22,667 bases of DNA, from positions 1 to 22,667 of the IMG/VR virus record IMGVR_UViG_2778261501_000002. The stretch is one strand, 5' to 3'. Under the pieces are notes generated by a model, which made no database searches, was not told the origin of the DNA, and worked only from the letters and a program-made list of their open reading frames with translations. Positions 8,491 to 20,050 of the stretch are shown here, piece by piece (position 1 is the stretch's first letter; each line of letters starts with the position of its first letter). The stretch comes from a virus (taxonomy: Duplodnaviria > Heunggongvirae > Uroviricota > Caudoviricetes). The position numbers and the translations under genes are program-made.

Positions 8491-9530
8491 AGGCTGAAGC
8501 ATGGCGGGTCAGCAAACTTGGTGAAATACCTGATATAACGTTCGAGGAAGCGTGTGTCAGGTGGCTTGAAGAGAAAGCACATAAAAAATCGCTGGACGAT
8601 GACAAAAGCCGGATCGGATTCTGGCTTCAACATTTCGCAGGAATGCAACTAAGAGACATTACTGAATCAAAAATTTATTCAGCAATGCAGAAAATGACGA
8701 ACCGGCGTCATGAGGAAAACTGGAAACTCAGGGCAGAAGCATGCAGAAAAAAAGGGAAACCTGTTCCAGAATACACGCCAAAACCAGCGTCCGTTGCAAC
8801 GAAGGCTACGCATCTTTCATTTATAAAGGCCCTACTAAGAGCCGCAGAGCGTGAATGGAAAATGCTGGATAAGGCACCAATTATTAAAGTGCCTCAACCA
8901 AAGAATAAACGGATCCGCTGGCTGGAGCCCCATGAAGCACAAAGGCTGATTGATGAATGTCCGGAGCCATTAAAGTCTGTTGTTGAATTTGCACTGGCAA
9001 CAGGCTTAAGACGCTCGAACATCATCAACCTTGAATGGCAACAAATAGATATGCAGCGCCGGGTGGCATGGATAAACCCGGAAGAGAGTAAATCAAACCG
9101 CGCAATTGGCGTTGCGCTGAATGATACTGCATGTCGCGTATTGAAAAAACAAATCGGGAATCATCACCGTTGGGTATTTGTGTACAAGGAAAGCTGTACC
9201 AAACCAGACGGAACGAAAGCGCCAACAGTAAGGAAGATGCGGTATGACGCAAACACAGCCTGGAAAGCGGCGCTGAGACGGGCTGGTATTGATGATTTCA
9301 GATTTCACGACTTGAGACACACCTGGGCAAGTTGGCTGGTTCAAGCCGGAGTCCCGTTGTCAGTGTTACAGGAAATGGGAGGCTGGGAGTCTATCGAAAT
9401 GGTTCGTCGATATGCTCACCTTGCACCTAATCACCTTACCGAACACGCACGGCAAATAGACTCGATCCTGAACCCATCGGTCCCAAATTTGTCCCAGTCA
9501 AAAAATAAGGAAGGTACTAATGATGTGTAA
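8367..9530 (+). CDS. int: Tyrosine integrase (lambdoid P22/DLP12-type)
   Basis: 387-aa ORF, GAGGA SD 6 nt upstream of ATG 8367; conserved HDLRHTW and RRYAHL catalytic motifs; strong resemblance to enterobacterial prophage integrases as recalled. Confidence 0.92.
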
Positions 9531-9702
9531 CTTATTGATTTTAATGGTGCCGATAATAGGAGTGTAACACGCGATAAATCTTGTGTTCGGGTCTTCTTCT
9601 ACGACCTTCGCAACTACCTGATTTAACGATTTTTACGCACACTGATAATCTGGCATTCATCATGCACATGATAAACGCCCCTAAACTTTAACGGGGTGGA
9701 AA

Positions 9703-10926
9703 ATGAAATACAAGCCGGATCAATACATCATATCTGATAGTTACGGAGTTTATTACGTCAGGATTTCAATTCCTGTATGGCTTCGTAATGCATTTGGTGG
9801 AAGAAAAACTCTCGTCCGTAGTCTGAACACTTCCGATCTTCGTGTGGCTCGTAGGAAGCGTGATGTTATAGCCGACGAATTTCACCACATCAGGCAAATT
9901 GCAGAGCCGCCAAAACCGGACAGCTTGCAGGACACGATCAGCTTTTTAAAGAGCGTGGCTAAGTACGCGAAAGCTGCCCCGAAAGCATCAGCTCCGATTA
10001 TCTACCAATGCCCCTCTCTGAATAAGATGTTAGAGATTTACCTCACGCATAACGCTGATCGCCTGAAAATGGGAACATTAAGCAAGACCAGAAAAGCCGT
10101 TGAACTGTTCCTGAATTACCTGCGAAAGAAGGATGTTGAACTAAACGATATCAACCGTACCACCGTTACAGGCTGGCTTGATCATCTCCGAGAGACAAAG
10201 GCAGTCCAGACAGTGGCTAACTACCTATCAGCAATGGCAAACATTCTCGATCTTGCCTCTTCCCGATACCAGGACGCCCCACCGCTGGAAACTAACGTGT
10301 TCAGGGGGCATAAACTCAACACAGCGCAGAGCCGCCAGAGTTACGAGGCATTCACGGACGAAGAAATTACGAAGCTCATTAGCACGTTTAACAAGTTAGG
10401 AGAGGACGAATTAAGGGATGTGAGCGCCATCGCCGCTTATAGCGGAATGCGCATCAATGAAATAGCCAGTTTGAAATCTGACAATATCCGTGAAGTTGAG
10501 GGGGTGTTATGTTTCGAGGTGACGGAGGGTAAGACACGCAATGCGGCGCGGTTGGTTCCACTTCATAGTGCGATTAGAAAAATGGTTCTGGAACGCTGCC
10601 AGAAGCCGCACAACGGCTTTTTATTCTACCGTGCAAGTGTGACCAAGAGACAGGACGGCAAGCGCTCCTCATGGCACGTAAACCGCTTTGGACGGCTTAA
10701 ACGCGATATTCTCCCAGGGCAGGAAAACAAGGTGTTTCACTCGTACCGCCATGCAGTGATCAGTAAGCTAAACGCCGCCGGAGTGGATGAATCTCGTATT
10801 GCCTTGCTCGCGGGTCACTCATTTGGAGAAACTGAGTCTTTCAAGACGTATTCGAAGAGTGTTCCTGAGCGTATTATGAAGGAGTTAGCGGGGTATATTG
10901 AATTAATAAATTACAACGTCCAGTAA
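9703..10926 (+). CDS. Tyrosine recombinase/integrase (second, distinct integrase)
   Basis: 407-aa ORF; catalytic motifs MRINEIASL (box I Arg), HSYRH, GHSF, and Tyr in FKTYSK; unrelated in sequence to the upstream integrase. Confidence 0.85.
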   Translation: MKYKPDQYIISDSYGVYYVRISIPVWLRNAFGGRKTLVRSLNTSDLRVARRKRDVIADEFHHIRQIAEPPKPDSLQDTISFLKSVAKYAKAAPKASAPIIYQCPSLNKMLEIYLTHNADRLKMGTLSKTRKAVELFLNYLRKKDVELNDINRTTVTGWLDHLRETKAVQTVANYLSAMANILDLASSRYQDAPPLETNVFRGHKLNTAQSRQSYEAFTDEEITKLISTFNKLGEDELRDVSAIAAYSGMRINEIASLKSDNIREVEGVLCFEVTEGKTRNAARLVPLHSAIRKMVLERCQKPHNGFLFYRASVTKRQDGKRSSWHVNRFGRLKRDILPGQENKVFHSYRHAVISKLNAAGVDESRIALLAGHSFGETESFKTYSKSVPERIMKELAGYIELINYNVQ

Positions 10927-11573: not shown

Positions 11574-13424
11574 TCATCCCCCTGTGGATGACTGACCGCT
11601 CAAGGCTGATAGCGTAAGGCTACGAGTGAATGAATCCGCACTCGCTTTTGCAGACCAGTCGATATAGTCAGACAATCGAGAAACATCACTTTGCAGAGTC
11701 AATCCCACTTGTGGATTCACTTGTAGGTTGAATATCGGGTTCAACGTGTACGCTGGCGCGTTGCTGCTGTTGAGCGACATTGCCGAAGCACGGAGATTTT
11801 CCCCTGAAAGGCTGTATTGATTAGTCGCTGTCCCTGCTTGCTGATTACCAACGCCCAACCAATCCATGATAGCCGGAGCCACTGAACGGGTATCAAACCC
11901 CGTTTTATCCTGAATCCAATCGGCCGTAGCATTCGCAGAGCCACCCACAGCACCATCATAAAGATTTTGAACAGCAGGTTTCTTAGTATCGCTAAACCAT
12001 TCAGGGTGTTGTTGGCGGAGAGTACTGTTAAGATCAGACACTACGCTGGAGATTTCTCCAACAAAGCCCGTCACCTGTTTAGCCAGGTCGCCTAATCCCT
12101 CTCCGAGCATACCAGCAGATTCTGTTATCACTTTGGTGTTCTTCACCAGGTCGTCACCACCATCAGCAAAGCCTTTCATAAAGCCTGTAAACATGCTGTT
12201 ATCAACGCCATTCATGAGATTACCCATCGCTACACTCAGATCACCATATGCAAGAGTTTGCTTGATCTGCTCCTCGTTAAGAGTTTGACCACTATCGACA
12301 AGCTGTTTCAGCGTCTTGTTATATTCTGCACCGTTGTTCATGAACATATCGGTGTAGTGCATCAGGTCATCACCTAAACTCTCTATAAGCGTACCAATCT
12401 GAGCCTGTGACATACCACGGCGTTGCCCTTCATTGGTAACTGCTTGAAGTAGATCAGCAGGACGATCCTGGAAGGATTTAATCTGTTCTTTGCCCCATCC
12501 AAACTTATTCATAATAGAAGTGATACCACCATCGCCGCCTTTCCATTCGCCATTTTTAAACTGGCTATCGTTCAGGGTCATAGCGATACGTTCACGTACA
12601 TCTTTGAAATTGTCCGTCACTTTATCGACATTGGCGCTATCAACTCCGTGTTGCTGCCCCCATGCCACCATCGTTTTAACTACGTTAGGATTAGTCTTAA
12701 CAAGTTCCGATTTTCTAACCAAGTCAAGATTTTCATTCCCTTTGTCAACAATTCGCTGCCCCACTCCGAGGGAGCCAGCCGTTAACGCAAGGCTTCCTAA
12801 TACCCCACCACCGACGATAGGAGCATTCCCGCCCTTCTGAGCCTTTAGCTTAGTGGCTGCTGCGGCATACTGGGTACGCTGTGCCTGTGTCACTTTCGCT
12901 TGTTGTGCGGCTTCTCTGCGTAACAGGGTTACACGCTCGCGTATAAGCGCATTCATACGTTGAGAGCTAATATTCCCCTTCGCAAACTCTTCGCTTTGCT
13001 GATGAATATAACGTAACGCTTCATACTGAGATTTAGGATCAAGCCCGTATTTACCTTTAATTCCTGACACTTGTAGCCCTGCATGGCGAAGTTTAAGCTC
13101 GGCTGTCTCTTGGCGCTTCTGTAGCTGCTGCTTCGCTTTCAGATTGGCCTTTTCATCCCTGGCTTTCTGCTTCTCCGCCGCACGTTGGGCTTTCATTTCC
13201 TTCGTATCACGAGGCTTATCATTAAAACGTGCATCATCGGCTTGTTGACGGGCTTTCTGTCTGCGCTGCTTCAGATCCTGGAAGCGAATCTTGGGATCGG
13301 CTATTTTCTGGAAGTGCTTTTGAAGGTTATCCGCTGCGGCCTTAGCCTCTGCAATACTCCCTTTGTCAACGGTGAAAGTTACGGTGTTGACGATCTTACT
13401 TGTATTAATCTCAAGCATCGCCAC
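11574..13424 (-). CDS. Phage tail tape-measure-like protein
   Basis: 616-aa ORF with a long charged coiled-coil N-terminal region and Gly-rich hydrophobic segments (GGGVLGSLALTAGSLGVGQ). Start is ambiguous: GTG 13424 or ATG 13418. Confidence 0.45.
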   Translation of the reverse strand: MAMLEINTSKIVNTVTFTVDKGSIAEAKAAADNLQKHFQKIADPKIRFQDLKQRRQKARQQADDARFNDKPRDTKEMKAQRAAEKQKARDEKANLKAKQQLQKRQETAELKLRHAGLQVSGIKGKYGLDPKSQYEALRYIHQQSEEFAKGNISSQRMNALIRERVTLLRREAAQQAKVTQAQRTQYAAAATKLKAQKGGNAPIVGGGVLGSLALTAGSLGVGQRIVDKGNENLDLVRKSELVKTNPNVVKTMVAWGQQHGVDSANVDKVTDNFKDVRERIAMTLNDSQFKNGEWKGGDGGITSIMNKFGWGKEQIKSFQDRPADLLQAVTNEGQRRGMSQAQIGTLIESLGDDLMHYTDMFMNNGAEYNKTLKQLVDSGQTLNEEQIKQTLAYGDLSVAMGNLMNGVDNSMFTGFMKGFADGGDDLVKNTKVITESAGMLGEGLGDLAKQVTGFVGEISSVVSDLNSTLRQQHPEWFSDTKKPAVQNLYDGAVGGSANATADWIQDKTGFDTRSVAPAIMDWLGVGNQQAGTATNQYSLSGENLRASAMSLNSSNAPAYTLNPIFNLQVNPQVGLTLQSDVSRLSDYIDWSAKASADSFTRSLTLSALSGQSSTGG

Positions 13425-13727: not shown

Positions 13728-14759
13728 TTAAGCAGTGATGGTGATCTTCACCTGCATACCTAACGCATGGTTCACTGGTAATGCGCTGTTTTCGTGCATA
13801 ACGTGGTAAGCATCGCCGCGCTCGCTCAGGTAGCCCCAAGAGTAGTATTCAGCAGGTGCAGCATCGATCAGCGCAAAGTTACCAGAGGCAGCGCCGTAGA
13901 TGTTCTGATAAGCATTTGTGCCTTTACTGAACACCGGAACCGCCACCATGTCAGCATCATCTGGCATCTGTGCAAGGATCAGCGGATCTGTCACTTTAAC
14001 AATGTCGATAGGCGCACCAGGTAGGCTAAACGTACTAACACCAGGGAGAAGCTCGTGACGCTGGTAGAATAGGTTACGGTCGTCATATGGCGCTACATAC
14101 TGGAACGCCTTAGACATACTGTCAGAGAAGCGAATCTGGCTAAATGCAGCAGGTTTAGCGAATACGATCACTCGTTCAATCTGTCCAGCCAATCCACCTG
14201 CGGCAGCCTGAACTTTGTCTAAGATCGCATCAAAATCCTGTGCCGCTGTCGCTGTGCTCACGCTGGCTGTCATTGGCACCACACCGAACAGTTCAGCATA
14301 AGAGATCAGTAGGTCATCAGTTGCAGGCGTATAAACTTCACCTTTGAACAGAGCACGGGCCAGGTAAGACTCACGGGTACGCAGATAAGCAATCTTATGT
14401 TTGCCAGTGTATTCGGTGTACAGGTCGGTAACGGTTTGCTCGTAGTCCGTTCCCTGCACTCTGCGGCCTTGTACGTCTACAGGTTTAAACTCATCTTCCC
14501 TTGCAAACCAAGGAATCTCGATAAGGTATTCTTTGCCATTCTGACGCGCGGTAGTGTCGTGGTTTGATGAATAACGGCTCTGCGGGGTGTTAAACAGGCT
14601 GTAGTTATCATCCAGAAGCTGTGTCACCACCACTTTCGGATTCTGAACACCTACCCCGTCGAATAGGTCGAGGGCATTCATAAGATAGTTACGTTCCGGC
14701 AGAGCCTGGAAGATTGGCGCTAAATCGACCATCTCACGCCCAATTGCGATTTTACTCAT
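13728..14759 (-). CDS. Phage major capsid protein, lambda gpE-like
   Basis: 343-aa ORF, AAGGAAG SD; size and C-terminal pattern (WGYLSERGDAYHVMHENSALP) resemble the lambda gpE family as recalled; preceded by a roughly 110-120-aa gene as in the lambda D-E arrangement. Confidence 0.5.
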   Translation of the reverse strand: MSKIAIGREMVDLAPIFQALPERNYLMNALDLFDGVGVQNPKVVVTQLLDDNYSLFNTPQSRYSSNHDTTARQNGKEYLIEIPWFAREDEFKPVDVQGRRVQGTDYEQTVTDLYTEYTGKHKIAYLRTRESYLARALFKGEVYTPATDDLLISYAELFGVVPMTASVSTATAAQDFDAILDKVQAAAGGLAGQIERVIVFAKPAAFSQIRFSDSMSKAFQYVAPYDDRNLFYQRHELLPGVSTFSLPGAPIDIVKVTDPLILAQMPDDADMVAVPVFSKGTNAYQNIYGAASGNFALIDAAPAEYYSWGYLSERGDAYHVMHENSALPVNHALGMQVKITITA

Positions 14760-14775
14760 TATTTATCTTCCTTGA

Positions 14776-15135
14776 TTAAGAGGTGAAGAATGGACGGCAT
14801 ACGAACCCTTTGGATTCGAGCGTGGTGATAGCTGCGGCGTGATTAGCTGCGTGCAGGTTGTCGGCTTTCAGTGCTACGAAGCTACCAACATTAGGCGCAC
14901 GTAGGACATTCACGGTTTTACCGTCGCCAGCACTCACGAAATCACTTACCACCACAAAGGCATCATCGCCGGAGGTGTATAGAGCGCCATCAGCGCCGAT
15001 AACATCGCCGCATTCAATATCTGCTGGCAGGTCGAAAACACGGCCTTCTACGACTGCAAAAGAATCAGTGGCGTAGCTCAATACGTCAGTGAAACTCTTA
15101 CGAATTGGGAAAAGTTCGGTTAGGTCTACAATCAT
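14776..15135 (-). CDS. Putative head decoration-like protein (119 aa)
   Basis: Position and size relative to the capsid gene; ATGA overlap with the upstream 71-aa gene. Assigned from gene order only. Confidence 0.3.
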   Translation of the reverse strand: MIVDLTELFPIRKSFTDVLSYATDSFAVVEGRVFDLPADIECGDVIGADGALYTSGDDAFVVVSDFVSAGDGKTVNVLRAPNVGSFVALKADNLHAANHAAAITTLESKGFVCRPFFTS

Positions 15136-15347
15136 TGTTGTTTGATTTCCTTGGATTTGATTGCGATCCGTTCCTGCATACTAAGTTGAGGTGTGTCCTC
15201 AGAAGGGAAATACTGGTCTACAGCTTTTTCTATTTCTTCAACGGTACATCCTGCCATTTCAGCCACTTTAGCTATTAACTCAGGATTAACTTGAATCACT
15301 TCGGATTTGTATTTTAGGATTCGGTCGCGATTGTTTATTAAGAACAT
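15132..15347 (-). CDS. Hypothetical protein (71 aa), first gene of the head-gene operon
   Basis: AAGGAA SD 7 nt upstream of ATG 15345-15347; translationally coupled to the next gene. Confidence 0.4.
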   Translation of the reverse strand: MFLINNRDRILKYKSEVIQVNPELIAKVAEMAGCTVEEIEKAVDQYFPSEDTPQLSMQERIAIKSKEIKQQ

Positions 15348-15415
15348 TGTGTTGTTCCTTCGCGTTATAACTGCGTTTATCCTTCCATTGATAACGGAAG
15401 TGTTACATGCAGATT

Positions 15416-15440
15416 GTTAAAAAGGGGCGATTAAGCCCCT
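15416..15440 (-). terminator. Rho-independent terminator candidate
   Basis: On the minus strand: AGGGGC-uuaauc-GCCCCU followed by UUUUAAC. Confidence 0.4.
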
Positions 15441-15732
15441 GGAGAATATGCCCTTGTTAGAAAGCATTCTGTTAAAATCATTTTCGTTTCGGAGGATTAT
15501 GATGTTAAAGAATGGCTTCTTGAAAAAATGAAGGGTGCAACTGTTACGAATAACAGAAGTAGGATCGCCCGTCATTGCTCCCACTTCAAAACAGAAGCCC
15601 TTCTGTCATGGCGAGAAGTGGGAATGGAATCTCAATATCACCACTGGAATAGTAATAAGAGATTGCCAGCCTGAACGTAACTACCGCTGACGGCGTTTAT
15701 TCAGTCTGACTACATTCATCCTAACGGAATGA

Positions 15733-15966
15733 ATGAGCAAAGAGCGAATGCCCTTTCTGAAAAAGTCGGAGATGCGCGGTGATTGCGATGCAATACCAAC
15801 ACAACGAGATATTACATCCCGCGCATTCCTTCGGAACAAACAAGACAAAGAACCAACACTTTCAGAAATAGCATTCAGAGGGAGAGAATGCCGCTATGGG
15901 AACGGCATTCTCAAGGAGTGCGTATTGACATACGAGGGTGAAGTGATTCGAATACTTACCCTATAA
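15733..15966 (+). CDS. Hypothetical ORF (77 aa), weakly supported
   Basis: Open frame with only a weak SD; convergent with the gene at 16014-16352. Confidence 0.2.
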   Translation: MSKERMPFLKKSEMRGDCDAIPTQRDITSRAFLRNKQDKEPTLSEIAFRGRECRYGNGILKECVLTYEGEVIRILTL

Positions 15967-16013
15967 CTCATTATGACACATATAGCACATAATGTCAAGA
16001 CATTTAGTAACTT

Positions 16014-16352
16014 TTATGTTATGGCGCATTCTTCCGCGATCTGGATGGAAAGCTCTCCGAGTTCAACGGTGATGTATTGCAGAGAGCAAGCAAGCTCCTC
16101 AAGGTCATTAGCTACACGCCACGCTTCTTCTGGTGTGATCGAACTGCCGTCACGCTGCACCAAACGAGCTACAGACGTTTGCAGATGTTCAAGGGCAGTG
16201 ATTGCCTGTTCAGTGTATTGCACCGCTTCCAGAAGCGCGGAGGGCGTTCTCTCACGCCACGCTGCATTAACAAGCTGTAAGGTTGGTAAATGCCAGTTGT
16301 CGTGGAAAGAGTTAATTAGGGTGTTCACTGTGTCCATAGTTTTATTATTCAT
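16014..16352 (-). CDS. Hypothetical protein (~112 aa)
   Basis: AGGAAAA SD upstream of ATG 16350-16352, which overlaps the stop of the upstream 127-aa gene; the track's longer 144-aa start at 16448 is less likely. Confidence 0.4.
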   Translation of the reverse strand: MNNKTMDTVNTLINSFHDNWHLPTLQLVNAAWRERTPSALLEAVQYTEQAITALEHLQTSVARLVQRDGSSITPEEAWRVANDLEELACSLQYITVELGELSIQIAEECAIT

Positions 16353-16728
16353 TGTTTTCCTTGTCGTCAAAGAGAATATCAAACTCTTGTGTGTGCTGGG
16401 ATAGCCCCCAGGTTTGACAATACCCAATATAATCGGCGTAATGTTCAAATCCTGCTATTTGCCATTTCTTGAGATGGCTACTATCTATAATATATTCGCG
16501 TCTGCGTCGTGGTTTGTAATAAACGTTATCCGTTGACGATAGAACATCCTGCAATAGTTCAAACTCTAATCCATTTGGTACTACTGCGGGATATTCTTTA
16601 ATAGTTGTCACCATCTCACCAGGAATAGACTCTCGTGCGAGGTCTTGTAGAGAAGAGGTGTATTTACGTTTGCTGATGCGTGTGGCTTTTTCGATTCTAA
16701 CAAGGTTACTTCGTTCTTTTCGTCCCAT
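16345..16728 (-). CDS. Hypothetical protein (127 aa)
   Basis: GAGGAA SD upstream of ATG 16726-16728; basic N-terminus. Confidence 0.45.
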   Translation of the reverse strand: MGRKERSNLVRIEKATRISKRKYTSSLQDLARESIPGEMVTTIKEYPAVVPNGLEFELLQDVLSSTDNVYYKPRRRREYIIDSSHLKKWQIAGFEHYADYIGYCQTWGLSQHTQEFDILFDDKENNE

Positions 16729-16832: not shown

Positions 16833-17294
16833 TTATTTAGTCGTAAGTGTAATGTCGCATCCTTTACCGCGACCAGGTTTGATTAACGTAGTAGTTAGAT
16901 AATCATTGCGGCGAAGCTTGCGAATCGCACTGGATACAGTTGCCACACTTATCCCCAACACTATCGCTATTGACTCCTGTTTCACATTTGTTAATGATGG
17001 CAGTGATTCGAGGTGCATTAATACCAGACGTTCCGAAGGAGACAGATTCTTATCGTGAAGATGTGGGGATGTCATTTTACATTCTATCTCTTTCGGTGGC
17101 TTCATCGCTGCATTGAATAGCGTAACAAGAGCATTAGCGTAACTTGATTCACCTCGCTCAGCGTAAACATCTACAAGTTCTTGCGCTTGTTCGAATGCAA
17201 CACCTCTTTCAACTTCTGGATTTAATAAACTGGCAAGATGGATGATGTTAAGATCACGTTCGTTGTATTGTTTGGGTATAACCGTTTTCAGCAT
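16833..17294 (-). CDS. HTH-domain protein (153 aa), putative regulator or replication-associated
   Basis: C-terminal winged-helix-like segment (VKQESIAIVLGISVATVSSAIRKLRRNDYL); start overlaps the upstream gene's stop. Confidence 0.5.
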   Translation of the reverse strand: MLKTVIPKQYNERDLNIIHLASLLNPEVERGVAFEQAQELVDVYAERGESSYANALVTLFNAAMKPPKEIECKMTSPHLHDKNLSPSERLVLMHLESLPSLTNVKQESIAIVLGISVATVSSAIRKLRRNDYLTTTLIKPGRGKGCDITLTTK

Positions 17295-18028
17295 AAATGT
17301 TCTATTTCCTCGTAGATTGGTTTAAGTTTTGGATTCTTCTCTGTGTCCAGGTATCCGTTAATAAGTAGCCATCTGATTTTCGGATGTTGTGAAACTGGTA
17401 GATTCTTTTCAGGATTCTCCCATTCATCCCGATAACCCTCAAGAAAGTTTAAATTAACTGGCTCTATCTTAATATCTTTAGCTGGAATGGAGGCGGGTTT
17501 CTTCGTAGGCATTTTCTTTGGCTTCTCCGGCTTCGGATCTGCTTTGGCCTCTTCTGGCACTGACTGCTGTTTTTCTTCCTCTGGCGCTACGTCTTCTTTA
17601 GCTTTGCCAAACACGGGATGTTTCAGACAATCTACCCATTCCGGCGCGGAATCACGTTCCATCGCATTACGATCACGTTCAAAGGTGAAGTTTTGCGGCG
17701 TGAGTGGCGTTATAGTCCATTGGTTAGAGCGCTTTGGCTTATTACTGGCGATCAGTCCGATTTTCTTCAACTTTGCAACAATACGTGTTGCCGTAGCCGA
17801 GCTGACACCAATACTTGCACCAAGTTGATCAATGTCATCGTAATAAGTACCGCCCAACTCTATCGCAAAGCGATAATAACGATGGCGCATTCTGACGTAA
17901 AACTGCTTATCAGCAGGAGACAGGGACTCTGTTACGCCTGTTTTAAGATTGGTGATCCTGGTGCATTCGTTAAATGCGTCTTCGGTGTTGGTGAAACTAA
18001 AAGCCTTACTGTTTATAATGTCAGTCAT
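17288..18028 (-). CDS. HTH-domain protein (246 aa) with K/E/P-rich linker, putative regulator or replication initiator-like
   Basis: HTH segment (IDQLGASIGVSSATATRIVAKLKKIGLI), low-complexity charged linker, then a C-terminal domain. Confidence 0.5.
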   Translation of the reverse strand: MTDIINSKAFSFTNTEDAFNECTRITNLKTGVTESLSPADKQFYVRMRHRYYRFAIELGGTYYDDIDQLGASIGVSSATATRIVAKLKKIGLIASNKPKRSNQWTITPLTPQNFTFERDRNAMERDSAPEWVDCLKHPVFGKAKEDVAPEEEKQQSVPEEAKADPKPEKPKKMPTKKPASIPAKDIKIEPVNLNFLEGYRDEWENPEKNLPVSQHPKIRWLLINGYLDTEKNPKLKPIYEEIEHLC

Positions 18029-18486: not shown

Positions 18487-19164
18487 GTTGCCTGATAGTG
18501 CGGTGTAAGTTGGATTGTTTGCGTTAGGCTGGATGCCTGAGATGAGGACGGGATGAATGCTTTCATTACCCTACATCATTTACTTTAACATGAAATGATT
18601 TAAATGTCAACACTTATTTAAATCCCTTTCAAATTATAGCGCATTTCCACGTTGTGATCAACTCATTCATGTCATCATAAAACGCGGTCTATCGCTTTCT
18701 AACAGGTTTGAAAGCCTGAGAGTTGCAATCCCCTCCCTATCCTCTCAAATTCGCTCTCAGCGCGTCTGGGGCGTTCCGTTTGCGTTACCGCCGCCCTCTG
18801 GCACTTACTCCCGAAACCAATAGCACAACTACTGAGGGATAACGTTAGTTATCAGGATAGTAGGTGATGGTATTGGATTGAGGCTGGATGAACTGGAGCC
18901 ATCAGCGACCAGTGAATCCTTAGCCGTGGGCTAACTTTGCATGGATGAATGCGGAGCATGGAAGACAGGCAGAAGTTATGCTGAAAGACATTGCGCACAC
19001 GGCGCATAGCTTCTGTGCCTCGTTTCACGAGGGCGAAGCCCTGGCACAATCACAGACAGATGCGCTACGCTGCGTCGTGAGCGGCTGACCGAGTAGCCCC
19101 CAAAGGCGAATCAGGTCACTTGCCAGGCGATACGCGCCAGCAAAGCGAATCTTTAACAAGATCT

Positions 19165-19291
19165 TCTAAAAGCTCTCTTTTAGAGATCGCTTTTAGAATC
19201 TCTTTGTATAGAACATCAATTTGATGTGTAGTTTGCCGATCCATACATCAATTTGATGCGTATCCCATGCATCTATACATCATTTTGATGT
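19165..19291. promoter_or_regulatory. Operator/iteron-like repeat cluster
   Basis: Perfect inverted repeat TCTAAAAG-ctct-CTTTTAGA (19165-19184); three 13-bp palindromic repeats CATCA(A/T)-T-TTGATG at 19214-19226, 19246-19258 and 19278-19290 with exact 32-bp phasing. Confidence 0.55.
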
Positions 19292-20050
19292 ATAACGCCC
19301 CCAACTAACTCTGATTCATCCATGCAACAACACTAAGAGTAACGAGAGGTTATTCCTATCAAAACAACACGATAATCATAGCTAAGCCTATCTTAAATGA
19401 CAGGTAAAGATTGCCGTTGTTACATGGGTAAAGTTGCCATAGTCAGCAAGATAGTAACCATCACTCACTTTGCGTAAAGCCTTGCGCCATGCGGCTCACA
19501 GCGATCATTGTCCACAATGAGGAGTTTCATGACAGGTGCAATGTGCTGAACGAGTTTTCTAAAATGAAACGATGTTTCTTTTTCATGCCAAAATCCACCA
19601 ATTGATTAGCATTCTAATCATTTCATTACACACTCAGTTTCAAGTGCATAAACTCCGCATAATTTGTGCATACAGGCAGGTTAGCCCCGCCCTCGCCTAA
19701 CAACCTTACATTTATCAGATTTAAATCAATGAGATAGACAATAACCACACACAAGCATTGGTAGTGTGATGTTCCGCTGTTGCCGCTGTTCTTCGTGCAG
19801 AGTTGAGGATTTGGCAATGTTCAAACACATGTTTATAAATGCCAACATCATGATTTTGTTCAAGATATTTAGAGGAGAAGAAATTTTCGATCTGGAGGCG
19901 GCCCTGGAGGTCGTTAAGCACTGGACGCAATCGCGCCATTTACCACACACAAGACAGTTCGATTTTTGATCATTTATATTGCAACTTACTGAAATTGATC
20001 ATATTGTTTGTTTCGTTGAGTTTAGATGTGTGTCTTTATGGGAGGGTAAA

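Follow-up and report, generated by a model that had tools for sequence, protein, structure and literature searches.

Evidence for a large structured RNA upstream of the capsid genes in an enterobacterial island family

In phage lambda, the order Q-PR'-6S-tR'-late genes places a small gene directly upstream of a strong promoter, whose terminated RNA, the 194-nt 6S, is followed by structural genes behind the terminator. The window analysed here (the whole stretch of DNA under study, 22,667 nucleotides of IMG/VR record IMGVR_UViG_2778261501_000002) appears to have a parallel layout, which we take as a lead only. Two small genes, p127 and p112, lie directly upstream of a strong, constitutive-looking promoter, the predicted RNA ends at terminators, and structural genes follow behind them. 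The promoter spacer exists in several mosaic versions, as do Q-binding sites. In contrast to 6S, the RNA is about 546 nt long and elaborately folded. Further differences from lambda are that no Q-family domain is found in p112 or p127, that no convincing -10-like pause element is seen by eye in the first 25 nt, and that the element is a small island with only capsid, decoration-like and tape-measure-like proteins.

A second comparison is with the lambdoid nut and rrn boxA elements. The word CGCUCUUUA of the alignment consensus (GCUCUUUG in the window) matches CGCUCUU(U)A, which we take to be the boxA consensus, and is located upstream of the terminators. The boxA-like word is present in the consensus and in most variants, where it is also the pairing partner of a segment of the RNA termed B. 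A hairpin with a conserved loop (15732-15716, minus strand) follows 2-6 nt after the word, with the terminators downstream, and the N terminus of p127 is arginine/lysine-rich, reminiscent of the N/Nus system. However, the hairpin has a stem of 9-10 bp and a GUUA tetraloop, whereas known boxB hairpins have 5 bp and a GNRA-like pentaloop, and neither p127 nor p112 shows an N-family match or homology. The boxA-like word, the GUUA hairpin and the basic N terminus of p127 are hints of antitermination that serve as leads only.

The P4 CI and P1/P7 c4 RNAs also reside in satellite or prophage elements and combine a constitutive promoter, a structured leader, and premature termination that silences downstream genes. 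These RNAs are ~70-80 nt long, pair with repeated targets in their own transcript, and control replication or antirepressor genes. The window RNA, in contrast, has no Rfam C4 match and no complementary repeats of its CCUCC loop. ROOL and GOLLD RNAs resemble it in being several hundred nucleotides long, in having many covarying helices, in residing in mobile or phage-related DNA, and in that their function is not known. They share no sequence or structure similarity with the window RNA (Rfam negative), which is confined to Enterobacteriaceae islands at a fixed, leader-like position before the capsid operon. The trp-type leader-peptide attenuators share a short ORF with a strong Shine-Dalgarno sequence near a terminator, but the ORF of the window lies on the wrong strand, lacks regulatory codons, and encodes a peptide without conservation. 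The window RNA appears to work most like a terminated late-operon leader, and it cannot be shown to belong to the Q, N/nut, P4 CI/c4, ROOL/GOLLD, or leader-peptide families.

The island and its homologues

The window contains part of an Escherichia coli chromosomal island adjoining proA/thrW. Among 5,426 complete E. coli genomes, 14 contain the query segment taken from window positions 15100-16000. All genes around the region flagged by the original prediction (15348-15732), including the capsid operon, are on the minus strand. In the direction of transcription, they are p82, p58, a RepO-like initiator (17288-18028), an HTH protein, p127 (16345-16728), p112 (16014-16352), a gap, p71 (15132-15347), p119, an E-type major capsid protein (MCP; 13728-14759), p65, and a tape-measure-like protein (11574-13424). 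p71, with its ATG at 15347-15345, is the first gene of the capsid operon. The integrase gene (9703-10926) is on the plus strand.

The MCP matches the Pfam family Phage_cap_E (E = 8e-15) and has a single relative, of 27% identity, among 50,697 phage records. Its family seems to be confined to these Enterobacteriaceae islands. The islands encode an integrase, a replication initiator, a capsid protein without close relative in that phage collection, a decoration-like protein, and a tape-measure-like protein. In the window island, the annotation of the stretch from the integrase to the tRNA-Thr shows no portal, protease or terminase. The island family matches none of the satellite families known to us.

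No Pfam, PHROG or PDB sequence match was obtained for p112 or p127, nor did they show an antiterminator domain of the Q, N or any other type. p127 is always located two genes upstream of the structured RNA. Its N terminus is conserved and arginine/lysine-rich (MGRKERN..RIE.A.R..KRK) and has no known domain. The AlphaFold model of p127 is of low confidence (pLDDT 57, pTM 0.24) and unreliable.

Two other parts of the window were noted. A stretch of ~1.5 kb without annotated genes (18487-19979) lies upstream of p82 and contains three 18-nt palindromic repeats, ACATCAATTTGATGTGTA, at 19213-19294 with 32 bp spacing. The repeats, which are near the RepO-like gene, look like iterons or operators and may represent the origin of the island. 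Positions 1-9600 constitute a separate, degraded prophage remnant with tail sheath and tube genes, truncated terminase genes, YmfL, an XRE repressor, and a second integrase. As the remnant directly adjoins the island, thrW is occupied by a tandem array of elements.

The original prediction described an intergenic region of 385 bp upstream of the head genes. The region is indeed non-coding, but the gene-free gap upstream of p71 is larger, spanning 666 bp (15348-16013), and has no RefSeq (PGAP) annotation along its entire length. The plus-strand ORF that bounded the shorter interval (15733-15966, 77 aa) has no family or Pfam match and is absent from the PGAP annotation. It is frame-shifted in L002, a Pseudenterobacter island of 95% identity, and is not retained as a reading frame in homologues. 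Being unannotated, frame-shifted and not maintained, it is not counted as a gene.

Twelve reference-genome loci, including those of Pseudenterobacter, Kluyvera, Scandinavium, Buttiauxella, Citrobacter, and Enterobacter, were fetched via the capsid protein family. The gap stays at ~660 bp also in loci with a capsid protein identity of only 55-59%. A 20-base pattern taken from the most conserved hairpin of the RNA (P2) retrieved 65 metagenome loci, of which ~55 are true homologues. Forty-six full-length copies, less than 97% identical pairwise, were aligned with MAFFT on sequence only; the aligned sequences are related and mosaic. A scan of viral contigs with a 14-base pattern returned mostly chance matches and a single homologous locus (L132). 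The leader DNA has no match in the 50,697-record phage collection.

The order p127-p112-RNA-p71-p119-MCP-p65-tape-measure gene is invariant in all loci with enough flanking sequence. Synteny is also kept where the cassette of p71, decoration and capsid genes has diverged beyond tblastn detection. The comparison indicates that head genes are exchanged as modules relative to the leader. At locus L136 (973-2700) and similar loci, a head cassette encoding proteins of 74, 125 and 345 aa, beyond tblastn detection, lies behind the same RNA. In the Pseudenterobacter island L002, an isrN Hfq-binding sRNA (Rfam RF01396, 149 bits) is found at 11814-11956, inside an insertion that splits the region of the tape-measure-like gene.

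Structure of the minus-strand RNA

A conserved, structured RNA is very probably encoded on the minus strand of the gap. It extends for ~546 nt (15418-15963), from the predicted transcription start to the U-run of the second of two terminators (T2). The sense fold of 15963-15405 has a minimum free energy (MFE) of -190.9 kcal/mol (z = -8.97), compared with -162.6 kcal/mol (z = -3.78) for its reverse complement. RNAalifold yields -164.3 kcal/mol on the sense strand versus -135.1 on the antisense strand, and in 38 of the 46 sequences the sense strand has the lower MFE. The predicted pairs contain 605 G-U cells versus 165 A-C cells. This 3.7-fold excess assigns the RNA to the minus strand.

The helices are conserved by compensatory changes. 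In a 131-pair consensus structure, whose contrast with slid controls is inflated because it was predicted from the same alignment used for the pair counts, 89.7% of the cells of the 46 homologues are paired, compared with 44-50% when partners are slid by 1-3 columns; changes on both sides occur in 40 pairs and 330 cells, compared with 21-29 pairs and 62-127 cells; and covariation scores 0.214, versus no more than 0.085. The observed values were not attained in any of 500 shuffles. A separate, more conservative consensus fold contains compensatory changes in 19 of 49 pairs. The covariation is also visible by eye, as whole hairpins are swapped for other sequences of the same shape.

The region has the properties of a structured non-coding RNA, namely compensatory pairs, strand-specific G-U pairs, and folding energies below those of shuffled controls. 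No ORF is conserved within it on either strand among homologues. Rfam 15, including the C4, ROOL, GOLLD, HEARO, and RAGATH motifs, gave no match to the window or to the leaders of 10 homologous loci, and a sensitive Rfam search yielded only chance-level matches (E > 1). No description of the island type or of the RNA was found in the literature. The RNA is large, conserved, and previously unannotated. The original prediction had placed regulatory features upstream of the head genes, and a structured, regulatory-type RNA is found there with the capsid operon downstream on the minus strand. Its "small RNA" is ~546 nt long and runs 230 nt beyond the flagged stretch, which represents the 3' two-thirds.

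A predicted, near-consensus sigma-70 promoter, TTGACA-17-(TG)tCATAAT (15998-15970, minus strand), begins 15 nt past the stop codon of p112. It scores 11/12 in a promoter scan and has an extended TG. Transcription is predicted to start near 15963. The hexamers, the spacer and the conserved position are those of a sigma-70 promoter; among the 46 homologues, the site scores at least 9/12 in 42, the spacer is 17 nt long in 40, and the extended TG is present in 33.

The RNA begins with hairpin P1 (15962-15935, helix 1), which contains the block UCGAAUCAC. Seven of the nine positions of the block (T15 and A18-C23) are invariant in all 46 sequences, and C16 and G17 are at least 90% conserved. Hairpin P2, GAGAAUGCCG-UUCCCAUAG-CGGCAUUCUC (15910-15886, helix 4), is 99.8% paired, its invariance being partly by construction as the metagenome search pattern sits inside it. 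P2 is also present in five loci that were found via the capsid protein, independent of the search pattern.

The following domain (15877-15747) is closed by an 18-bp helix between segments A (15877-15859) and B (15766-15747). The domain encloses a GCGCGG/CCGCGC helix and a hypervariable, covarying hairpin (15829-15768). Double changes are found in six pairs of helix 5 and six pairs of helix 9. The mean duplex energy of A:B is -20.6 kcal/mol, compared with -4.1 with a shuffled partner. A long-range closing helix between A and the downstream segment C, present in one alignment, gave way to A:B, which shows compensatory changes and forms a far more stable duplex than A:C (-7.5 kcal/mol).

Segment X (15746-15739), the boxA-like word described above, has two possible pairing partners, the 3' part of B and the AAGGGC of segment C. 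The energies of B:X and X:C are -9.5 and -6.9 kcal/mol, respectively, compared with -3.5 and -2.7 with shuffled partners. None of the alternative pairings among A, B, X, and C overlaps a terminator stem of T1 or T2. Thus, a riboswitch-type mechanism is not claimed.

The GUUA hairpin (helix 11) is composed of a CC-GUUA-GG top, conserved in all but four of the 46 sequences as counted from the variant list, and a covarying lower stem with three double-change pairs. Two stem-loops follow, formed by 15710-15699 with 15676-15665 and by 15662-15654 with 15639-15632. They belong to the group of helices 12-15, are 93-99% paired, and hold conserved G-U pairs, such as a UG present in 45 of 46 sequences. 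The nested stem-loop recognized by the original prediction is also present (15628-15580, helix 16). Its outer stem, CCCACTTC/GAAGTGGG (15622-15615/15587-15580), and its inner hairpin, with a CAGAA/UUCUG stem, are separated by a UCGCCAUGA-type internal loop. Double changes occur in five of the seven outer-stem pairs, and at least five sequence versions with compensatory changes have the same architecture. Both this stem-loop and T2 are far beyond chance expectation.

The terminator-like element T1 (15576-15523, helices 17-19) is located ~100 nt before T2. It is a three-tier stem of AAUG/CAUU, GGGCG/CACCC, and CUGUUA/UAACAG, directly followed by six U residues. In other variants, CCCCCG/CGGGGG replaces GGGCG/CGCCC; the window copy has one C-A mismatch. 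All five pairs of helix 19 display double changes.

Between the two terminators lies a long hairpin of ~18 bp (15514-15465, helices 20-22) that is 88-95% paired. It exposes CCUCC in the apical loop, and its 5' arm reads UUAAC(A/U)UCAU. The UG/GU pairs of this hairpin are specific to the sense strand. Two candidate functions of sequences in the RNA were discarded. The CCUCC loop could form 6 of 7 bp with the Shine-Dalgarno sequence of p71 in the window, but no covariation between the two was seen by eye among the variants. The other candidate, an RfaH ops-like word (AGCGGTAGTTAC), falls within an apical loop that varies, and shows no conservation. Segment C, GCUUUCUAACAAGGGCAUAUUC (15466-15445), 5-8 nt upstream of T2, nearly repeats segment B and shows high conservation.

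T2 (15440-15419) is an intrinsic, Rho-independent terminator by direct reading, as the original prediction had recognized. Its stem is formed by AGGGGC (15440-15435) and GCCCCU (15428-15423), with UUAAUC as the loop and a run of five U residues at 15423-15419. A GC-rich hairpin with a U-rich tract is present at this position in 45 of 46 sequences and involves at least three different stems with compensatory changes. A consensus terminator scan did not flag T2, as the A-U closing pair of the stem leaves four U in the 8-base window.

The spacer between T2 and p71 is 44-83 nt long in homologues, and p71 of the window starts 72 nt after the U-run. The spacer (15412-15345) is sequentially composed of a hairpin, CUGCAU...ACGCAG (15412-15371), a conserved Shine-Dalgarno block, AACGCGAAGGAA (15366-15355), and the start codon of p71. 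L005-type sequences retain the hairpin stem with a U-G pair. The promoter scan revealed no promoter-like site in the spacer. The original prediction had assigned a GTTATC-N8-GATAAC dyad to a head-operon promoter. The actual sequence is TTTATC-N8-GATAAC (15376-15395; 5/6 matching), which occurs only in some variants and lies in the loop of the spacer hairpin, and the conserved promoter is the one at 15998-15970.

Role of the RNA

The most likely role of the RNA, to which we give about an even chance from the sequence comparisons, is that of a structured 5' leader whose terminators T1 and T2 gate transcription of the capsid genes. In a resting island, polymerases starting from the strong promoter would stop at T1 and T2 and release the folded RNA. 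The capsid genes would be expressed only when termination is overridden, probably via processive antitermination set up on the leader by a factor of the helper phage or the island. The spacer contains a conserved RNA hairpin and no promoter-like site, so the operon would most simply be transcribed by read-through. Read-through, in turn, would make the RNA a leader and the terminators a gate. The promoter, the two terminators, the covariation on the minus strand, and the invariant synteny all support this role.

A more distant island shows the same plan. In another E. coli strain (locus L009), where the capsid protein is 52% identical to that of the window, ~990 bp at the same position are free of ORFs (5403-6394), and a 945-nt stretch folds with z = -7.7. 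A promoter, TTTGCA-18-TATAAT, immediately follows the upstream gene, and the first head-operon gene is closely preceded by a hairpin whose tail is T-rich. No sequence similarity is detectable between the L009 region and the window RNA, which argues for selection of the arrangement and not only of the sequence of the window RNA.

Several points weigh against a terminator gate. The start, the ends, and the read-through are all predictions. To our knowledge, ~550 nt and ~15 helices far exceed the needs of any known antitermination or attenuation leader. None of the alternative pairings provides an antiterminator that overlaps T1 or T2, p112 and p127 lack an antiterminator domain with the p127 model being of low confidence, and the boxA-like word is also explained by its pairing with segment B. 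In addition, a strong constitutive-looking promoter combined with good terminators fits a stand-alone RNA gene equally well.

Such a gene is the main and serious rival, which we consider possible though somewhat doubtful. T1 and T2 would then be true 3' ends of a large non-coding RNA acting in trans or as a structural particle, and a separate, helper-activated promoter in the spacer between T2 and p71 would serve the capsid operon. Possible functions are an immunity or regulatory RNA like P4 CI or P1 c4, a decoy for a helper-phage protein, a component of capsid assembly or packaging like phi29 pRNA, and a self-assembling RNA like ROOL or GOLLD. The strong conserved promoter and conserved terminators are in line with this idea, as are the large size and the many helices, with the conserved loops (UCGAAUCAC, GUUA, and CCUCC) suggesting recognition surfaces. 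The linkage of the RNA to capsid genes is also constant and holds where diverged versions have taken their place. The spacer, however, has no reported promoter-like site, varies in sequence and length, and holds a conserved hairpin. Being exposed, the CCUCC loop might base-pair in trans with Shine-Dalgarno sequences, but a search of 45 islands for a second complement of the loop and its arm returned only the 3' arm of the same hairpin. Nor is the RNA similar to C4, ROOL, GOLLD, or any other Rfam model. A stand-alone RNA and a leader with terminators are not mutually exclusive. Lambda 6S and P4 CI are each both a leader and a discrete RNA.

In a further reading, which we likewise find possible though somewhat doubtful, the RNA would represent an undescribed class of large, ornate RNA specific to this capsid-encoding family of enterobacterial islands, with ~550 nt in the window type and up to ~950 nt in the second island type, as judged from the single locus L009. 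Such a class would have a function beyond the gating of transcription, for example as a sensor of helper phage, a decoy, or a component of capsid assembly or packaging, and its alleles would be exchanged as modules between islands. If confirmed, the RNA would add a large structured RNA to the well-studied genera Escherichia, Klebsiella, Enterobacter, and Citrobacter, in which few unannotated RNAs of such size are expected. It would also tie an RNA to the control of capsid genes in this island family. The promoter, the RNA, and the two terminators offer a concrete handle on how the islands might sense a helper phage, and the modular, mosaic hairpins provide natural compensatory variants for structure-function work.

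Explanations at the DNA and protein level

A DNA element, such as a cos/pac packaging site, a replication origin or an operator array, is very unlikely to account for the conservation of the gap. A satellite needs a packaging site, none has been identified, and the region is conserved and non-coding. However, its conservation follows base-pairing with compensatory changes, and the strand-specific G-U excess of 3.7-fold over A-C would be meaningless for duplex DNA. A promoter and terminators bracket the region, and an iteron-like repeat array exists elsewhere, at 19213-19294.

The original prediction proposed that a ten-codon leader peptide, translated from a GGAGG Shine-Dalgarno sequence, controls a nearby attenuator. 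The sequence elements exist: GGAGG is found at 15491-15495 and is followed on the plus strand by ATGATGTTAAAGAATGGCTTCTTGAAAAAATGA (15499-15531), which encodes MMLKNGFLKK. The Shine-Dalgarno-like sequence and the ATG are retained in 45 of 46 homologues. Yet the ORF runs opposite to the operon, the covarying RNA and the two terminators, and we judge that it is not a conserved coding gene. Among the 46 sequences, the peptide takes 26 distinct forms of 7-77 aa, and a 1-nt indel changes the reading frame beyond codon 3. Of the mini-ORF and the stems that were expected to be conserved, the stems are kept with covariation and the peptide is not. GGAGG lies only 1-3 nt from the first ATG, a spacing that is too short or variable for a tuned initiation site. 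No plus-strand promoter near the ORF was found in the promoter scan, and none was convincing by eye in two variants. On these grounds, control by a leader peptide is extremely unlikely.

The conserved elements of the mini-ORF are accounted for by the hairpin at 15514-15465 on the opposite strand. GGAGG is the complement of its CCUCC apical loop, ATG-ATG-TTA-AAG-AAT is the complement of its 5' arm, and the remaining codons are the complement of a spacer and of the U-run of T1. The Shine-Dalgarno sequence and the ATG are conserved because the sense-strand hairpin is conserved, and the G-U pairs of the hairpin are specific to the sense strand. The mini-ORF is most likely a by-product, or shadow, of this hairpin.

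Almost no credence is given to unannotated protein genes as the cause of the conservation (the 77-aa plus-strand ORF at 15733-15966 and 55-aa minus-strand ORFs), since the 40-100% identical stretches that tblastn finds in many loci with the 77-aa ORF simply reflect nucleotide conservation, that ORF is frame-shifted in L002 and has neither a Pfam match nor a PGAP annotation, and the longest ORF here ranges from 18 to 67 aa among homologues, with none kept on either strand.

One natural disruption of the RNA was observed. In E. coli CFSAN051542 (NZ_CP020835.1, 3778315-3780008), an IS1 element is inserted in the homologous leader, making this strain a natural disruption mutant.
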